Counted from the stretch's first letter, positions 5,218 to 32,234 are shown. The stretch: 33,854 nt of DNA from Candidatus Hecatellales archaeon B24 (GCA_001593855.1 LUCC01000002.1:1-33854); one strand, 5' to 3'. Notes: generated by a model from the sequence alone, not told the origin. Program-made: numbers and translations.

Positions 5218-5342
5218 ATGGAAAAGTAAAGGCTTCACATGGCGAAAGCCGTGGAAAAAGGGTTTATTTTATGTCGAAAACGAATTAAAGCTTAAGTCTT
5301 ATGAGGGTTTAACCATTAGTGCGAGGGGGTGAGCCCAGAGTT

Positions 5343-7526
5343 ATGACAAGTGAAATACAGCTTAGGGTTGCTGAAGCAAAGCAGAGGGATGTAGGCAGAG
5401 GAAAGGCGAGAATAGACCAGAGGGCTATGGAAGTCCTAGACGTAATGGCAGGCGACATCTTAGAAATTCGAGGTAAAAAAGTTACAGCCGCCATAGCGTG
5501 GCCTGCCTACCCTGAAGACCAGGGCGTGGACATCATACGTATAGACGGGCTCACCCGGAGGAACGCCCAAATATCGCTGAATGAGTACGTAACCGTTAGG
5601 AAAGCCATGGTTCATAACGCTTCCAGCGTAACCCTGGCCCCGGTGGACGTTCGAATAGAATTTGACCCTGACTTCACAAACTTTGTTAAGTCACGCCTTT
5701 TGGAGATGCCCTTAGTTGAGGGTGACATTGTTCTTCTATCCGTCTTCGGGAATGCCATGCCCTTCACCGTCGCCAAAACTAGGCCTTCAGGCATAGTTAG
5801 AGTTACCTCCGGCACCATATTCCAGGTTCTAAGCGAGCCAGCCCCTGAGAAGAAGGGTATTCCAAGGATAACCTACGAGGACATTGGAGGCCTCCACGAG
5901 GAGGTTCAGCGGATAAGGGAGATGGTTGAGCTTCCGCTTAGACATCCTGAACTGTTCCAGAGGCTTGGCATAGAGCCTCCGAAGGGCGTTCTGCTTCACG
6001 GGCCTCCGGGATGCGGGAAAACGCTGCTGGCGAAAGCAGTGGCCAACGAGGCTAACGCCTACTTCATCAATATTAATGGTCCTGAAATCATGAGCAAGTT
6101 CTACGGTGAATCGGAGGCAAGGCTTAGAGAAATCTTCCAGAAGGCCCAGGAGAACGCTCCCAGCATCATCTTCATAGACGAAATAGACGCTATAGCACCT
6201 AAGAGGGAGGAAGTTGTCGGGGAAGTGGAGAAGAGGGTTGTAGCCCAGCTGCTGGCCCTCATGGACGGGCTTCAAACTCGGGGGAACGTCATAGTTATTG
6301 GAGCTACAAACGTCCCTAACATGCTTGACCCTGCACTTAGAAGGCCGGGACGCTTCGACAGAGAAATAGAAATAGGAGTGCCTGACAAGGATGGACGCTT
6401 CGAAATCCTGCTTATTCACACCCGAGGCATGCCTATGGCTAAAGATGTAAACTTGAAGATGCTGGCGGATATAACTCATGGATATACGGGGGCGGACATA
6501 GCAGCCCTCTGCAGGGAAGCTGCCATGAAGGCTTTAAGGCGTTACCTTCCCAACATAGACCTAGAGCAGGAGCGAATTCCACCCCAAATCTTGGAGAGCA
6601 TGGAAATCAGGATGGACGATTTTATGGCAGCCTACCGGGAGATAACTCCAACAGCCATGAGAGAGGTCTTCATAGAAATTCCTAACATCCGCTGGGATGA
6701 CATTGGAGGGCTGGAGAAGGTTAAAAAGGAGTTGAGGGAAGCCGTTGAGTGGCCTCTAAAGTATCCTCAAGCCTTCGAGAGGGTTGGCATAGAGCCTCCG
6801 AAGGGCATCCTCCTCTACGGGCCTCCGGGATGCGGGAAAACGCTGCTGGCGAAAGCAGTGGCCAGTGAAAGCGAATCCAATTTCATAACGATTAAAGGGC
6901 CTGAAGTCTTCAGCAAGTGGGTTGGAGAGTCTGAAAGGGCGGTTAGAGAAGTCTTCAGGAAGGCTCGAATGGCTTCCCCAGCCATAATATTCTTCGACGA
7001 GTTTGACGCTTTGGTTCCGAGGAGAGGTATGGGCTATGCTGACCAAGGCGTGTCTGAACGTGTTATAAGCCAGCTTCTAACAGAGATGGATGGAATAATA
7101 GGTTTGGAGAACATAGTTGTGATTGGAGCTACAAACCGGCCTGACATTTTAGATCCGGCTGTACTCCGTCCAGGACGCTTCGACAAGCTAATATACGTTC
7201 CAGCCCCCGATGAGAAAGCCCGCAAGGAAATCTTCAAGGTCTACACCAAGAACATGCCTTTAACCGAGGATGTAAGCATTGAAGCCTTGGCTTCTCTGAC
7301 CAAGGGCTATAGTGGAGCTGACATTGAAGCCGTATGCAGAGAAGCAGGGCTTAACGCGTTGAGGAAGAACATCAACACCAAGGAGGTTTCCATGGAAGAC
7401 TTTAGGGAAGCCTTAGCCCGCATAGGCCCCAGCATCACACCTGAAATGGAGAAGTTTTATGAGAGCTTTGGAGCCACCTACAGGAAGCAGATGGAGAAAA
7501 CCCTCGTACCCCCGCCTATAGCTTAA
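5343..7526 (+). CDS. cdc48: CDC48/VAT AAA+ ATPase
   Basis: N-domain ([18 protein letters not shown]) plus two AAA modules, each with GPPGCGKT, a Walker B (IDEID / FDEFD) and RPGRFD. ATG at 5343 preferred. Confidence 0.97.
5965..6864 (+). repeat. Intragenic direct repeats between cdc48 D1 and D2: 23 nt (5965-5987 / 6784-6806) and 48 nt (5998-6045 / 6817-6864), both perfect
   Basis: TTGGCATAGAGCCTCCGAAGGGC and ACGGGCCTCCGGGATGCGGGAAAACGCTGCTGGCGAAAGCAGTGGCCA each occur twice at an 819-nt offset. Confidence 0.95.
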
Positions 7527-7842: not shown

Positions 7843-8883
7843 GTGGGCGTAAACCTCGGCGACCTTGTACCACGCAGGGAGATAAGCCTCCAAGAGCTTT
7901 CAGGCAGAAGCGTTGCCATAGACGCCTACAACGCCCTATACCAGTTTCTATCCATAATAAGGCAGCCTACAGGCGAACCTTTAATGGACAGGTCTGGCAG
8001 GGTGACAAGCCACCTAAGCGGAATCCTATACCGGACAGCAAACCTGGTGGAAAGAGGAATAAAAGTTGTATACGTCTTCGACGGAACTCCGCCTTCACTT
8101 AAGGAAGCTGAAATCCAGAGGCGAACGCAGATGAGGGAGGAAGCCTCTTTAAAGTATGAGGAAGCCGTTAGGAAAGGCGACTTGGAGGAAGCCAGAATAT
8201 ACGCTCAGGCTACAAGCCGGCTGAGAGACGAGATGGTTGAAGACGCTAAGAGACTTCTAACATTTTTAGGTGTGCCCTGGGTTCAGGCACCGTCGGAAGG
8301 CGAAGCCCAAGCCGCTTATCTGGCTGCCAGGGGGCATGTTTGGGCTTCAGCCAGCCAGGACTACGACTCCCTACTTTTCGGGGCGCCAAGGCTGGTGAGA
8401 AATCTTACCATAACCGGGAGGAGAAAGCTTCCTAGGAAAAATGTTTACGTTGAAGTTAACCCTGAACTTGTTGAGCTTGAAGAGGTTTTAAGACGTTTAG
8501 AAGTTGACAGAGGACAGCTGGTTGACATAGGCATTCTGGTTGGCACCGACTATAACCCAGATGGAGTTAAGGGGATAGGCCCTAAGACAGCTCACAAACT
8601 CGTCAAGGAAAACGGAAGCCTGGAGAAGCTTCAAGACCTCCTGAAGGCTAAAGGCAGCATGCTTCCTGAAAACTGGAGGAAGATAAGGGAAATCTTCCTC
8701 AAGCCCGACGTAACCGACAACTTCAAGGTTGAGTGGCGTAATCCTGACGTTGAAGGCGCTGTCGCGTTTCTATGCGGGGAGAGAGACTTCTCGGAGGATA
8801 GAGTTAGAAACGCCCTAGAGAAGTTTAGGGCTGGGATGAGCGAGCTTAAGGCTAAGCGTACCTTGGACGCCTGGTTCGGCTAG
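7843..8883 (+). CDS. fen: Flap endonuclease 1
   Basis: MGV start, [63 protein letters not shown]-like TLDAWF. Confidence 0.98.
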
Positions 8884-14137: not shown

Positions 14138-14728
14138 TCAGCCTTCCCGCCCGCCTATTTCTGAAGACTCCTCCGAGATGGTTAACAGGGACTCGGCTAA
14201 GGCTTCCAAGTCAACTTCAGCCCTAGTCCTCCAGCCTACCGTTAAAACCTCGTTTTCATCCTCATGCAGGTATCCAAGCCTAACAAACCTGTCCAGTGCA
14301 ATATTAACTCTCCACGAGGGAAGCTTGGAGGAGAGAAGCCTTTCAACCTCACCCCTCGAAGCCTTACCCTGCCTAGAAGCCAAGTAGGCGAGGGTTGCTG
14401 CTAGGGCTGCAAGGTCGTCTATACGCCATCCTGAAGCCTGTGCGTCGGTGGCTGGGAGGCTGCCCCGCAGGGTTACTAGGAAGCGGGCTCTGTCAAGCTT
14501 TGCCTCTTCGTCTCCGCCAGCCTCCCCCGAAGCCTCCGGAACTATTTTAACTTGAAGCCCAAGCCTTTCAAGCTCGCTGTCCAGCAGCTTAACGATTTTC
14601 ATGTAGTTTTTCCCAAGGCTTTTCCGCAGTTCCCATCCTTTAACTCCAGGAGTTCTGTGCCTTTGGAAGAGGAGAAGCTGAGCAGCTCTTTTCACTCTCC
14701 TAGCGTAGGAAGCTTCTCCACCGCTCAC
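14138..14728 (-). CDS. Putative KITE subunit (tandem winged helix, Nse1/Nse3-MAGE-like) of the second SMC complex
   Basis: Two wH-like halves; C-terminal LDRFVRLGYL...VLTVGWRTRAEVD recalls the Nse1/MAGE L..FV..G(W/Y)L....G.R...E motif; GTGA start/stop overlap with the upstream kleisin-like gene. Confidence 0.65.
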   Translation of the reverse strand: MSGGEASYARRVKRAAQLLLFQRHRTPGVKGWELRKSLGKNYMKIVKLLDSELERLGLQVKIVPEASGEAGGDEEAKLDRARFLVTLRGSLPATDAQASGWRIDDLAALAATLAYLASRQGKASRGEVERLLSSKLPSWRVNIALDRFVRLGYLHEDENEVLTVGWRTRAEVDLEALAESLLTISEESSEIGGREG

Positions 14729-15525
14729 TCTTCCCCACCGCCAACCATGAATTTATCGAGCGGTATGGCTACGGAGTATTCTCCTTTAGGCTTTCCAGCG
14801 GTTTCAGGCGTCGGCTTAAGTTTAAGCTCGCCTTTAAGCCTGTCCAAGGTTAGCTGAACATAGCCGTAGGTTGCAAGAAAGCTTACCATGTAGGCTTTAA
14901 GCACGGTTTCCCTGAAGGTTTCAGCCCTGACAAAGTCCCAGTAGGATATTTCCCCTCCAGCCTTTTCGGCTTCGGCTGAAAGCTTCTGGAAGGTTTCCTC
15001 CAGCAATCTTCTGAAGTCCCCGCTGAGGGTTAAACCTAAAGCCTTAACGGTTTCAGGTGAAACCTCGGCTTCAACCATTCTGGGGGCTTCTAAGGCTTCC
15101 GGAGGGAGGCTTCTCGGTTTAAGCCTTACCCAGTAGGAGGCAGCCTCCTTAAGCCTTTCAAGAGTTAAAACCTCGATTTTAACGGTGGGCTTCCAAGCTT
15201 TGAGGAATACTTCGGCGAGCTGTGGAATGGTCAGCTCAGCAATCCTCGTCTTAACGGTTTCAGGATCTAAAATTCTAAGCTTACTCCTAACCCTAACCCA
15301 TTCGTCTTGAAGTTCCACGACCTTTGAAAGACTGCGTAAAGCTTCCCCGTCGAGGGTTAGGTCTGAAGGTTTCACCCAGGCGGGGAGGAGACTGCGTAAA
15401 GCTTCAAGCTCCTCTTTAACGTCAACTTCAAAGGGGTTGAAACCTTTAGCTTCAACCTCCCTGCACAGGTGCACTATTCTCAGAGCCCTGTCTCTGGCTT
15501 CGCTAAGGCTTGGCTTCTCCTTCAA
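14725..15525 (-). CDS. Putative divergent kleisin (ScpA/Nse4-like) of the second SMC complex
   Basis: N-terminal GFNPFEVDV...DGEALRSLSKVVELQ parallels ScpA RPWDLNI...SGTALLSSSIVLRLQ in this window. C-terminal wH EISYWDFV...TVLKAYMVSFLATYGYVQL parallels ScpA EVLFSKL...IVKIFLMLIFMASKGLVEL. Confidence 0.72.
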   Translation of the reverse strand: MKEKPSLSEARDRALRIVHLCREVEAKGFNPFEVDVKEELEALRSLLPAWVKPSDLTLDGEALRSLSKVVELQDEWVRVRSKLRILDPETVKTRIAELTIPQLAEVFLKAWKPTVKIEVLTLERLKEAASYWVRLKPRSLPPEALEAPRMVEAEVSPETVKALGLTLSGDFRRLLEETFQKLSAEAEKAGGEISYWDFVRAETFRETVLKAYMVSFLATYGYVQLTLDRLKGELKLKPTPETAGKPKGEYSVAIPLDKFMVGGGEE

Positions 15526-17440
15526 CCAGGGCTACCTCCGATTTTCCTCCAACCTTCTGGACGACTATGATTCTTGCCTCTTCGTCGAAGACTGGGTGAT
15601 GCCAGGGTGTAATCACTATATACTGGGTTTCAGGGTTGTCTCTAACGGTTTCAACTATAAGCCGTGCCACAGCCTCCCTGTTCTTAGGGTCCATGTGTAC
15701 GTCAAACTCGTCCACAGCCCTAATAGGGGAGGCAACATGCTCCTGGAGGGCTAGGAGGAAAGCCATAATGGTGGTAGACCTTTCCCCTCCACTCTGCGTG
15801 TAAGCGTCAAGCCTTACAGGAGGAACCCCATGGAAGCCCACCGTCAACTCTAAGCCAGCCTTCTCGAAGCTTTGAGAATTAACTATTCGAACCTCTCCCG
15901 TGGCTCCTATGGTTGAGAGAAGCCGCTGGTAGCCCTGGTTAATCTTGGAAACAACCTTCTCAAGCTTTCCAATCCAAACCTCTCTTCTCGCATCTATTTC
16001 CTCCAGGAGCTTCCGCTTGTTTTCTTCAAGGGCTTCTATTTTCTCCTTAAGCTCCTCGTATAGCCTTCTAAACTTCTCGTATACCTTCTCAACCCTTCTG
16101 GAGATGTCGGAGAGGGTGGAAAGGTGGATGTTCACTGTTTTAAGCTCTTCAGCTACCTCCGGCGGGCTTCTGCCAGTGTAGATTCTCGGGCCTACCTTTG
16201 CAGCTTCAGCCTTACCGATTTCAAGGTCTTCCCTAACCTTCTCCATTTCACGGTAGAGCCTTTTAAGCTGGGAATCCAGCTCTTTAAACTGGTATTCTAG
16301 GAGGGCTTCGGAAATCCCTGCCTCGACGAGTTTATCCCTAGCCCTGTCAAGCCTGTCTTCAAGGCTTGAAAGCTGCTCCTTAAGCTTCAGGGCTTCTGAA
16401 GCTAAAGCTTTAACCTCATCCTTCAAGGCTTCAGCTTTGCCCTTAAGGTTTTCAGCCGGCTGGAGCTTTGAAAGCTCTTCCGCCAGCCTTATCCAGCCTT
16501 CCCTTTCAGCCTTCTCCACTTCAACCTTTAAGAGGTTGTGATACCTGTTTTTGAGGTCAGCCTTGACCTTTTCAAATCCTTCCAACGCTTTTTTCCTAGA
16601 GGACTTAGCTTCCTCAAGCCTTGAGAAGGTTCTGTCTATCCGCTTTTTCAGTTTTTCAGCGTCTTCAACCATTCCTTCAAGCTGAGATTCAAGCTTTGAA
16701 ACGTGTGACCATGCTAGTTCGACTTCAAGGTTTTTCCGCTGCTCCATGAGCCTGAGCTTTTTAAGGTAGCGTTCATGCTGGCTTCTCCAGTAGGAAAGGT
16801 TTTCTTCAGCCTCCTTAAGCAGCTTCCCAACGGATTTCTCCTCGGAAAGGAGGGCTTCAAGCCTTGTTTGAGCTTCAAGAACCCTTTGCCTGTAGGGATG
16901 AAGCCCTATGGCTTCCTCCACCAGCTGAAGCCTCTGCTCAGGAGAAATTAAGGCGAACTCTTCAACCATGCCCTGATGCATGATTATAAGCATGTTGTCA
17001 GGGTTTATGCCGAAGCTTGAAAGCACACGCACCAGGTCGCCTTTAGCCACATGCTTATAGTCAGCTTCAAACCAGTAGGTTCCATCCTTTCTAAGGTAGC
17101 GGGTAAGCCTGAAAGTGTCGGCGGTGGAGGTTGGAACGGGACGTCTGCCCTTAACAGGCTTGTTGCTGAAGAGCAGGGTTATCCTGGCGAGGTCGGCCCC
17201 CCGCCTGATAAGGCCGCTAAGCCTCCTAGAACGTTCTGTGTGAGCCTGACCTAAAGCCACAGATAGGGCGAGGAGAATTGAGGATTTACCAGCACCGTTA
17301 GGCCCGCATACCAGATTTAACCCGGCTTTAAGGGGAATCCTCGCATACTCGTAGGACATGAAGTTCTCTAGGATAATCTCTTCTATAATGGTTTTAGGAG
17401 CCTCCACGGCTTCAACTTTTCTTAGAGCCTCTCCACTCAA
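15503..17440 (-). CDS. Short hinge-less SMC-family ATPase with Smc5/6-like motifs
   Basis: LENFMSY, Walker A GPNGAGKS, Q-loop FGINPDN..IMHQG.VEEFA.ISP, about 300 aa coiled coil, signature QSGGERS, Walker B/D-loop SPIRAVDEFDVHMDP.NR, QYIVITP; 645 aa; single Cys, so no zinc hook. Confidence 0.9.
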   Translation of the reverse strand: MSGEALRKVEAVEAPKTIIEEIILENFMSYEYARIPLKAGLNLVCGPNGAGKSSILLALSVALGQAHTERSRRLSGLIRRGADLARITLLFSNKPVKGRRPVPTSTADTFRLTRYLRKDGTYWFEADYKHVAKGDLVRVLSSFGINPDNMLIIMHQGMVEEFALISPEQRLQLVEEAIGLHPYRQRVLEAQTRLEALLSEEKSVGKLLKEAEENLSYWRSQHERYLKKLRLMEQRKNLEVELAWSHVSKLESQLEGMVEDAEKLKKRIDRTFSRLEEAKSSRKKALEGFEKVKADLKNRYHNLLKVEVEKAEREGWIRLAEELSKLQPAENLKGKAEALKDEVKALASEALKLKEQLSSLEDRLDRARDKLVEAGISEALLEYQFKELDSQLKRLYREMEKVREDLEIGKAEAAKVGPRIYTGRSPPEVAEELKTVNIHLSTLSDISRRVEKVYEKFRRLYEELKEKIEALEENKRKLLEEIDARREVWIGKLEKVVSKINQGYQRLLSTIGATGEVRIVNSQSFEKAGLELTVGFHGVPPVRLDAYTQSGGERSTTIMAFLLALQEHVASPIRAVDEFDVHMDPKNREAVARLIVETVRDNPETQYIVITPWHHPVFDEEARIIVVQKVGGKSEVALVEGEAKP

Positions 17441-17553
17441 CAGTTTTCTCCTCTACCGGGCGGGGCTGAAGAAAGGCCTCCTAGCCTTAACATGAAAGCT
17501 TAACCGGCTAAGATAAACGTTATTTCATTTTTAGGGTGCTAGCGGACGGAAAA

Positions 17554-30464: not shown

Positions 30465-32234
30465 TTAAGCTTCCGCCTCGATCTTCTTAAGCTGGCGCAG
30501 GTACATTTCTACTATTTCCTCGACGGTGGTAGCGTCTTCAGGAGCCTTATCCGTCCGGTAGCGTCCTGTGAACCTTGGAAACCTTATGGCTAAGCCGCTT
30601 CCAGCCCTAATCCTGTTCATGGCACAGGTGTGGATAGGACTTAAAGTTATTTCGGCTCCAACTATCTCCAGTACGACAGCTGGAACAAACCATACGTCGG
30701 CTTCAAGCTGAGATTCAACCCTTGCATGCCTGTGAGGTATAACGTTATCCTTGAAGAGCTTTGGAAGTTTCGCCAGGTCCTCGTCGGTGAAGCCTGTTCC
30801 AACCTTGCAGACCGTTTTGAAGAGGTCGCTTTTCTTGTCGTAGGCTGCCATGAGGAGAGCCCCGTAGGTTCCAGCCCGTTTGCCTCTTCCGTGGAAGGCT
30901 CCAACAGCCACTAGGTCCACGGTGTCGGTTAGAACGGACTTGTAGTCACGTTTATACTTTATCCAAAGCCATCCTCTGGCACCAGCCTGATAGACGGAGT
31001 CTGAGCCCATAGACTTCACCACTACCCCCTCACAGCCGTCTTCTATGGCTTTCTCAAAGAATTTTTCAAGCTCTTCGACGCTGCTGGCCACCATGGCCTG
31101 GGAGAGCTGAACCCTCTCAGAGCGTTTGATAGCCTTTTCAAGCTTCCTACGTCTCTGAGGCAGAGGTTTAAGCGTGTAGTCCTCTCCATCAGCGTATAGG
31201 AGGTCGAAGCAGAAGAGGGCTATGGGATACTGCTCCATGGCTTCTTCGATCCCGTACTTCCGCCTGCGGTGCATGAGTTCCTGGAAGGGAAGCATCTCCC
31301 CGCTGTCAGGGTTTATGGCAACCCCTTCAGCCTCCAAGATGACTTCGTCAGCCTTAACATGCTTCCTAGCAAGCTCGCAAACGTCGGGGTAGTGGTGGGT
31401 TATGTTCTCCAGCCTCCTCGAGAAGATCATCACCTCGCCGTTGGCCAGCTTATGGATTTGGAGGCGTTCACCGTCATATTTGTATTCCGCCAGCCCCTTC
31501 CCGCCTATTTTTGCCAGTATCTCCTCGGCGGAGGGAAGCCTTTCAGCCAGCATAGGCCTAATAGGCTTGCCAACGGTTACCTGGAAGCCTTTAACACCTT
31601 CAACCCCCCTTTCAGCCACAGCCTTAGCAACTCCACCTAGGTCTGAGGATAGATTGTAGGCTCTCTCAAGCATAGGCCTCAAATCCTTGGAGCCGCAGAA
31701 GGCTATGGCTAGGGCGTCCAGAATGGTCATGTCAGCTACTCCAAGCCTAAGCCTGCCTGTAACCGTTCTAACCAGGTATTTAGCCTCGTCTGGGGAGGCG
31801 TTGGAGAGAAGCCCTGAAAGTATTTTTATTTTTAGGTCTTGAGCTCCCTCCCCTGTGGCCCTAGCTATCCTGTCCAGTCCGTCGTAAACCTTCTCCACGG
31901 TTAGGGCTTCCTGGAAGAGGGTTGCCTGAGCCCGTTTACCCATGAATTTGGCTGCGGTTTCGCCTAGGTCGCCCAGCTCTTTAACCGTCCTGTCTACTTT
32001 AGGCTCGGAGACGCCGGCTGCCATGGCAACAGCCTTCACAGCGAGTTTTTCAGCTATTCCAAGCTCTATTCCCATGTAGTCAGGGTAAAGCTTCCCCTGC
32101 GTTAAATATACTACCTTGTCTACGAGTTCCACAGGGGTTTTCTTGAAAAGGTCTACCAGGTGGTCGGTTATCTCAAGCCTCTTAGTGGTTGAATCTATAC
32201 GCTGATAGGCTTCCACGAGCAGGGAGTAGTCCAA
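30465..32234 (-). CDS. lig: ATP-dependent DNA ligase
   Basis: PMLA, EYKYDGER.QIH (adenylated Lys), FSRRLE, FDLLY, EGVVVK, WIKYKRDY, IRFPRF...R.DK. Confidence 0.98.
   Translation of the reverse strand: MDYSLLVEAYQRIDSTTKRLEITDHLVDLFKKTPVELVDKVVYLTQGKLYPDYMGIELGIAEKLAVKAVAMAAGVSEPKVDRTVKELGDLGETAAKFMGKRAQATLFQEALTVEKVYDGLDRIARATGEGAQDLKIKILSGLLSNASPDEAKYLVRTVTGRLRLGVADMTILDALAIAFCGSKDLRPMLERAYNLSSDLGGVAKAVAERGVEGVKGFQVTVGKPIRPMLAERLPSAEEILAKIGGKGLAEYKYDGERLQIHKLANGEVMIFSRRLENITHHYPDVCELARKHVKADEVILEAEGVAINPDSGEMLPFQELMHRRRKYGIEEAMEQYPIALFCFDLLYADGEDYTLKPLPQRRRKLEKAIKRSERVQLSQAMVASSVEELEKFFEKAIEDGCEGVVVKSMGSDSVYQAGARGWLWIKYKRDYKSVLTDTVDLVAVGAFHGRGKRAGTYGALLMAAYDKKSDLFKTVCKVGTGFTDEDLAKLPKLFKDNVIPHRHARVESQLEADVWFVPAVVLEIVGAEITLSPIHTCAMNRIRAGSGLAIRFPRFTGRYRTDKAPEDATTVEEIVEMYLRQLKKIEAEA

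Follow-up and report, generated by a model that had tools for sequence, protein, structure and literature searches.

Why does an archaeal genome that encodes a canonical Smc-ScpA-ScpB system carry, next to it, a second SMC ATPase gene followed by two genes for small hypothetical proteins? The question is raised by positions 14,138 to 17,440 of a 33,854-nucleotide stretch of DNA from Candidatus Hecatellales archaeon B24 (GCA_001593855.1, LUCC01000002.1:1-33854), which was analysed whole and is called the window below. The locus is read here as an archaeal Smc5/6-related complex of a hinge-less SMC, an Nse4-type kleisin and a tandem winged-helix KITE subunit, acting as a clamp or tether in chromosome maintenance; a probability of about 0.8 is given to this reading. 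By sequence comparison the operon would be a paralogue of the canonical Smc-ScpA-ScpB operon lying 3 kb upstream. An earlier note, written from the DNA alone, had proposed a minimal Smc5/6-type complex at this place, and its interpretation is supported as essentially right.

Three open reading frames (ORFs) occupy the minus strand at 17440-15503, 15525-14725 and 14728-14138, with coordinates as first given. They encode an Smc5/6-related SMC ATPase of 645 aa (15503..17440, TTG start), an Nse4-type kleisin of 266 aa (14725..15525, TTG start) and a candidate KITE subunit of 196 aa (14138..14728, GTG start). The SMC and kleisin genes share 23 nt (15503-15525), and 4 nt (14725-14728) are common to the kleisin and KITE genes, so that the ORF listing agrees exactly with the three translationally coupled genes that had been described. 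Shine-Dalgarno-like purine runs precede all three starts. Start positions agree with those of homologues, and a KITE homologue (P0131) is likewise 196 aa long. All ATPase motifs quoted beforehand are present in the translation: LENFMSY, FGINPDN..IMHQGMVEEFALISP, ELAWSHV, QSGGERS, SPIRAVDEFDVHMDPKNR and QYIVITP.

The ATPase matches the Pfam family SMC_N at 3.5e-32. A single-sequence phmmer search against the PDB gives yeast Smc5 as the top match (2.4e-31), with Pyrococcus Smc close behind (4.5e-30). A profile of the family, built from 36 members and searched against PDB sequences, ranks human Smc6 (2.1e-66, 228 bits), yeast Smc6 (2.5e-65) and yeast Smc5 (2.7e-62, 214 bits) first, then Pyrococcus Smc (8.9e-49, 170 bits), Smc2 (3.1e-43, 151 bits) and Rad50 (about 1e-11). 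In the reciprocal control the canonical Smc of the window finds Pyrococcus Smc (6.9e-95), bacterial Smc, then Smc4, Smc2, Smc1 and Smc3; none of its 53 matches at E<=1e-10 is Smc5 or Smc6. The TQSGGER signature and the QY..ITP motif are common to the short SMC and yeast Smc5 in alignment, whereas Pyrococcus Smc reads MSGGEK. Heads of the short SMC and of its canonical neighbour are 28% identical. The best NCBIfam model is that for archaeal SMC, at 219 bits far below its cut-off of 729. The resemblance to Smc5 and Smc6 claimed in the earlier note is borne out, and the head is supported as lying nearer to Smc5 and Smc6 than to Smc1-4 or canonical prokaryotic Smc, as judged by score ranking, not by a tree.

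The 266-aa protein has an N-terminal helical domain with a conserved DPF.VDV motif. Homologues number 9 by word-indexed search and 242 at E<=0.001 by profile search of a representative library. The profile, from an alignment of 125 near-full-length homologues, reaches yeast Nse4 (3.8e-7) and human NSE4/EID3 (5.7e-7) first among PDB sequences, in both cases through the C-terminal winged helix, ahead of the N-domain (0.0093) and C-domain (0.044) of ScpA. Pfam Nse4_C matches 71 of the 125 kleisins at E<=1 (best 7.2e-9), every other family at most three. Profile-profile alignment with hhalign pairs the protein with archaeal ScpA over 191-194 columns, a stretch that reaches from the DPF/W motif near the N-terminus into the C-terminal winged helix, with a probability of 95.8-95.9% and an E of about 6e-9; cross-controls give 0.3% for kleisin against ScpB and 0.2% for KITE against ScpA. 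A control profile of canonical ScpA (24 sequences) finds ScpA (9.3e-25), Rad21 (5.7e-6), CAP-H2 (1.2e-3) and Scc1 in the PDB, with Nse4 absent from its 35 matches at E<=10. The proposal that the first small ORF is a kleisin is thus upheld from both directions, and assignment to the Nse4 type is supported by these comparisons. The two kleisin paralogues of the genome point to different eukaryotic kleisin classes, in agreement with trees in a preprint (10.1101/2024.01.07.573240).

The 196-aa protein on its own has no match in Pfam, NCBIfam or the PDB. Its homologues, 1970 at E<=0.001, are of uniform size and all unnamed or 'hypothetical'. When members were scanned singly against Pfam, MAGE was matched by five and SMC_Nse1 by two of the first 45; with 17 members from more distant families added, the counts rose to 10/62 (best 2.8e-4) and 7/62 (best 4.1e-4), which makes these the two most frequent of 24,736 families. 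In the ten members viewed in detail, residues of about 100-183 correspond to 118-206 of 207 in MAGE and 157-193 of 194 in Nse1, the second winged helix of both families. The same C-terminal stretch weakly matches TrmB, Penicillinase_R and other winged-helix regulator families. A feature search of a protein atlas gives, behind the protein's kin, one cluster of MAGE (0.88) and one of MksE (0.78), taken as a lead only. The protein has no cysteine and therefore no RING. An Nse1/MAGE-like KITE is the probable identity, because position, size and the consistent weak MAGE/Nse1 matches agree with the Nse1/3-like kites that the preprint describes in such operons. What had been said of the second small ORF stands in part: operon position and the two top families favour it, and with all matches below threshold the label is probable only.

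Those sub-threshold matches leave room for another account of the third gene, in which an unrelated winged-helix DNA-binding protein, for example a regulator, travels with the operon and the complex is a binary one of SMC and kleisin. A binary make-up has been suggested for numerous Smc-ScpA pairs of archaea; PMC7055376 reports homologues of ScpA and ScpB from archaea with no binding between them; regulator families match the same region as MAGE and Nse1; and the hhalign comparison with ScpB is non-significant. This account is nevertheless unlikely. The third gene directly follows the kleisin gene, often overlapping it, in 93/109 loci, and keeps its place beside it in genomes whose SMC gene lies elsewhere; its 1970 homologues are uniform in size; and the two families at the top of the whole of Pfam are exactly the two KITE families of Smc5/6, the kind of kite reported for such operons in 10.1101/2024.01.07.573240.

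Linkage was followed in 109 related loci, of which 29 were reached by way of the SMC and 80 by way of the KITE. All three genes are found by hidden Markov model in 96, and the ordered trio SMC-kleisin-KITE on one strand with gaps below 200 nt in 93. Exceptions are loci cut by the end of the locus or contig (L021, L026, L030, L031, L079, L094, L105), loci with masked runs of N (L044, L046), loci with about 2.5 kb between SMC and kleisin (L053, L095), loci with no SMC within 4 kb upstream (L047, L060, L089, L091) and one SMC without downstream partners (L028). Among 20 regions from more distant families one (L159) is cut at a contig end and holds no gene of the trio; the trio is present in 17 of the 19 regions with an SMC. 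Kleisin and KITE genes lie elsewhere in the genome in all four exception genomes searched; the kleisin gene adjoins the KITE gene in three genomes of genus g25 and is about 2 kb from it in the fourth (G130). Conserved synteny, set as a check beforehand, is found in both the nearer and the divergent families. The three-gene observation is confirmed as real and far beyond chance, because all three proteins have many homologues and gene order is kept in most related loci.

Two details of the exceptions are recorded. In the two Bathyarchaeia loci with a long spacer (L053:644-3180 and L095:422-3172) small opposite-strand ORFs lie within the roughly 2.5 kb between SMC and kleisin. In genus g25 (family f13) the SMC gene stands alone at L147 and L148, and kleisin-KITE pairs are found at L164/L167, L165/L168 and L163/L169; in each of the three genomes the search output marks one or two TAG codons in frame within the kleisin match.

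Distribution was examined in 201 genomes of the phylum. The short SMC is present in 108 and SMC_hinge in 86: 53 genomes have both, 55 the short SMC only (an upper bound), 33 the hinge SMC only and 60 neither. Counts of 'no canonical Smc' that are based on the hinge overstate, because families f17 and f22 have ScpB (3/3 and 4/4) with almost no hinge matches (0/7 and 1/9, the one at 22.4 bits in a 1161-aa frame); these families probably carry a canonical SMC with a divergent hinge. In families f15 and f16 (e.g. L142-L146, L014-L022) the short SMC occurs in 16/17 and 7/8 genomes, with SMC_hinge in 0/17 and 0/8 and ScpB in 0/7 and 0/4. The minimal complex may be the only SMC machine of these two families.

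A quick maximum-likelihood tree was made of 49 SMCs, with the KITE-fetched loci (L032-L111) left out. Family labels change 20 times on it, the minimum possible; the mean after shuffling is 39, and none of 200 shuffles is as low. Of the 13 families with more than one member, 11 are set apart whole by a single branch. The label test shows clustering only, since kin share labels. Four SMCs of the window's taxonomic family (window, L030, L004/L006) are ungrouped, and the window SMC is without a well-supported sister. Near-identical relatives of the window SMC occur in metagenomes, at 86% identity. The closest named relatives of the operon are metagenome-assembled genomes of Candidatus Hecatellales and Bathyarchaeia.

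The canonical operon, whose Smc has 1208 aa and carries SMC_hinge, occupies 25467-20462 on the minus strand, 3.0 kb upstream of the second SMC operon. Genes for MoaA, MoaC, a MoaB-type protein and a pseudouridine synthase lie between the two. Direct reading of the 113-nt gap 5' of the SMC gene (17441..17553, minus strand) reveals a TATA-like A/T-rich stretch and a GAGGAG Shine-Dalgarno-like motif 8-13 nt ahead of the TTG start; the gap is a putative promoter and 5' leader. Read-through from upstream genes into the operon is possible because the entire array 25467-14138, of 11 genes, is co-directional. The remaining genes of the window are housekeeping genes: aIF2-gamma, Kae1, a small kinase, Cdc48 (5319-7526, plus strand), FEN1-type flap endonuclease (7843-8883, plus strand), PCMT, two TldD/PmbA, CofE, M24 peptidase, HMGL-type synthase, TrkH and ATP-dependent DNA ligase (30465-32234, minus strand). 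With both SMC operons, FEN1, DNA ligase and Cdc48 within 34 kb, the window is a replication- and repair-rich housekeeping neighbourhood. By hand count, 19 of the 53 genomes with both SMC genes have them on a single contig and at most 25 kb apart; seven taxonomic families are represented, and one genus supplies 11 of the 19. In most of the other 34 the genes are on different contigs, hence give no distance. Proximity of the operons could be a trace of ancient operon duplication or of a shared chromosomal neighbourhood.

Housekeeping neighbours bear on a reading in which immunity against plasmids or viruses would be the main job of the complex, in the manner of Wadjet or Lamassu or of the episome restriction by Smc5/6 in human cells. 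The ATPase does match PADLOC models (mad3 at 108 bits, LmuB at 88 in an almost full-length match, JetC at 53), LmuB proteins resemble it in size, and PMC10586767 reports a role of Smc5/6 in antiviral immunity; these matches are generic, and the Smc5/6 scores are much above them. Kleisin and KITE candidate match no PADLOC family, the operon holds no nuclease or other effector gene, and no relative of the KITE was found in the viral contigs or plasmids searched. The SMC, present in just over half of the genomes sampled, tracks taxonomy, unlike patchy defence islands, and two families have it and show neither hinge SMC nor ScpB. Dedicated immunity is accordingly improbable as the main function.

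The N-head of the ATPase spans residues of about 18-180, with Walker A GPNGAGKS at 46 and the Q-loop HQG at 155. An antiparallel coiled-coil hairpin follows at about 180-490; it turns at its apex near 325-335 and is interrupted near 410-432 by a conserved non-helical segment that resembles a joint. The C-head spans about 490-645, with the signature QSGGERS at 549 and the Walker B/D-loop VDEFDVHMD at 576. Walker A, Q-loop, signature motif, Walker B and H-loop are invariant in all 36 aligned family members. A truncated or decaying Smc copy is ruled out by this invariance and by thousands of homologues of uniform length.

No hinge family of Pfam matches the 645-aa protein. The 120 listed homologues are 579-726 aa long (median 652), and none has PF06470 in the precomputed domain column. 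Across the 201 genomes, SMC_hinge matches lie in frames of 639-1360 aa, mostly about 1150-1360 and never in short-SMC genes; the shorter frames are probably cut by contig ends. The extent of the coiled coil was taken from a crude heptad score, which is high at about residues 170-308, 323-420 and 435-490 and drops at the apex (309-336) and in a conserved proline/glycine-rich segment (407-434). In the 36-sequence alignment the apex region is unconserved and rich in insertions and deletions, and most of it is gone in some members. The arm is thus a simple hairpin of coiled coil with about 140 residues in each strand, which by arithmetic comes to roughly 20 nm. Its head-proximal part is conserved (W218 and W244 of ELAW on the ascending strand; N474, R485 and W489 on the descending strand) and its distal part variable. 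Short-arm variants of 573-606 aa were observed (P0103, P0112, L028:1486-3306, L142-L161), in which most of the distal coiled coil is gone (alignment columns of about 345-440) and heads, neck and joint-like segment are still conserved.

It is barely credible that the ATPase belongs with Rad50/SbcC or with other SMC-like repair proteins (ASRP, arcadin-4, coalescin) and outside the true SMCs: it is short and hinge-less as Rad50 is, and NCBIfam gives weak matches to Rad50 (70.7 bits), ASRP (52.7) and arcadin-4 (51), whereas the curated cut-offs of these models, which cover Rad50, ASRP and arcadin-4 and not coalescin, are 700, 300 and 860 bits, Rad50 chains reach about 1e-11 against 1e-62 to 1e-66 for Smc5/6, CxxC occurs in the central region of 0/120 members (the 645-aa protein has a single cysteine, at position 45), and the operon holds a kleisin and a KITE candidate in place of an Mre11 gene.

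Several points weigh against the reading as an Smc5/6-related clamp. The affinity to Smc5/6 rests on score ranking and published trees. In the SMC tree the window's own taxonomic family is not monophyletic and the window branch is long (0.7). With the hinge absent, two SMCs may not be joined away from the heads. Every KITE match is under the Pfam gathering score (best 21.1 bits against a cut-off of 25), and the KITE profile against the PDB is non-significant, with a MAGE-domain chain (7dg2_C) second at E=0.49. The hhalign comparison of KITE and ScpB is collinear and was judged non-significant; local mode gives P=0.034 and 0.022, global mode P=0.0004 with a probability of 14.5%. Stoichiometry, binding, DNA clamping and cellular role are all inferred.

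A mechanism may be outlined by analogy with established SMC mechanics. Two copies of the SMC would engage their heads on ATP. The SMC is presumed homodimeric because a single SMC gene of Smc5/6 type is found in the assembly (0.82 Mb, 71 contigs, 72% complete). One kleisin would bridge both SMCs asymmetrically: its N-domain would bind one SMC at the neck, where the invariant W of ELAW lies, and its C-terminal winged helix would bind the second SMC at the cap. A dimer of the KITE, seated on the central part of the kleisin, would help to clamp DNA on the engaged heads. Since the arm tip is unconserved and of variable length, the only ring closed by conserved elements would be the kleisin/head compartment. 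On this view the complex would be an ATP-gated clamp or tether on DNA that serves chromosome maintenance (repair, junctions linked to replication, or organisation) and not dedicated defence.

A further step is tentative and judged rather doubtful. The Smc5/6 lineage of TACK archaea may have been reduced to a head-neck-joint module that has lost its hinge and keeps an unconserved distal arm, down to a few dozen residues in some members of 579-606 aa; canonical Smc and ScpB go undetected in some lineages. The complex would then be an ATP-gated DNA clamp or tether closed by kleisin and KITE, with no compartment closed by a hinge. If true, the core activity inherited by eukaryotic Smc5/6 would be clamping, not hinge-dependent loop extrusion, and a free-living cell could manage with this minimal form as its sole SMC machine.

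What Smc5/6 does as its canonical function is a matter of debate, and the locus offers a very small Smc5/6-like machine, of 645 + 266 + 196 residues, with one SMC gene, no hinge and an operon without Nse2, Nse5 or Nse6. Because the genome also encodes the canonical paralogue close by, the locus lends itself to reconstitution, structural work and direct biochemical comparison of the two. If active, the hinge-less form bears on which SMC architecture is needed for DNA clamping and which for loop extrusion. The working of an SMC without a hinge and with a dispensable-looking distal arm, and its possible place as the sole SMC machine in some lineages, are the most interesting points.

The kind itself is not new, and the locus belongs to it. 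Yoshinaga and Inagaki (2021; PMC8665677) defined an 'SMC5/6-related aSMC' of 80 among 512 archaeal SMC homologues, 66 of them from TACK, with an input length range of 500-1500 aa, and proposed separate homodimeric complexes. Van Hooff et al. (10.1101/2024.01.07.573240) describe two archaeal complexes, one related to condensin and cohesin and the other to SMC5/6, the latter with an Nse4-related kleisin and an Nse1/3-like kite; it is said there to await experiment, its characterisation being of particular interest. The suspicion in the earlier note that the family may not be new was well placed, as the SMC clade dates from the 2021 paper and the operon from the 2024-2025 preprint. The literature search found no functional study and no account of a hinge-less form of the clade, detail that supplements may hold. 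The missing hinge, the short variable arms and the lineages in which the short SMC seems to be the only one are unmentioned in the sections consulted of either source, from which the supplements may differ; 'hinge' occurs in the preprint text in the general introduction only.

Compared with known systems, Rad50/SbcC and Lamassu LmuB have in common with the SMC an ABC head, a coiled-coil hairpin and no globular hinge. Rad50/SbcC differs in its zinc hook and its Mre11/SbcD partner, whereas the short SMC lacks a central CxxC and an Mre11 gene beside it. LmuB is of similar size, but no LmuA partner is present here and the LmuB score is far below those of Smc5/6. Wadjet (JetABCD) and Lamassu (LmuABC) have a dedicated nuclease or effector, JetD or LmuA, and partners specific to each system; the operon has no effector gene, the two partners match no PADLOC family, and the JetC (53 bits) and LmuB (88 bits) matches of the ATPase are generic. 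ASRP and arcadin-4 are set apart by scores of 52.7 against a cut-off of 300 and 51 against 860 bits. Abundant hinge-less SMC homologues have been reported from ocean metagenomes, assigned by their authors to Actinobacteria (PMC12153180, 2025).

Canonical Smc-ScpA-ScpB has the same gene order of SMC, kleisin and small winged-helix protein and the same SMC_N head fold family, and the kleisin of the second operon, along almost all of its sequence, is a remote homologue of ScpA (hhalign 96%). The proteins of the second operon have no SMC_hinge (PF06470) or ScpA (PF02616) match, and their kleisin reaches Nse4_C instead. A search of the genome for ScpB (PF04079) found only the canonical ScpB in the assembly, not the 196-aa protein.

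Among solved structures the ATPase scores best against Smc5 and Smc6 of the eukaryotic complex, and it has signature and C-terminal motifs in common with Smc5. The kleisin C-terminal winged helix matches Nse4, and the third subunit weakly matches MAGE (the Nse3 family) and Nse1. Eukaryotic Smc5/6 has two hinge-joined SMCs, two KITE genes and the RING of Nse1; here one SMC gene of Smc5/6 type was found in the 72%-complete assembly, with no hinge and arms of about 140 residues, and one candidate KITE gene with no RING. Counterparts of Nse2, Nse5 and Nse6 are absent from the three-gene operon, the part of the genome in which they were looked for.

The archaeal SMC5/6-related complexes are the closest known system. 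They are reported from the same taxa, Bathyarchaeota, Thaumarchaeota and Verstraetearchaeota (PMC8665677); short Smc5/6-type SMCs are common in Nitrososphaerales-type archaea among the homologues listed here. The same three subunits, of which the KITE is here a candidate, are described for them in one operon apart from the canonical Smc operon (10.1101/2024.01.07.573240). The affinities agree, of the SMC with Smc5/6 and of the kleisin with Nse4, and nothing contradicts membership of the locus in this kind.

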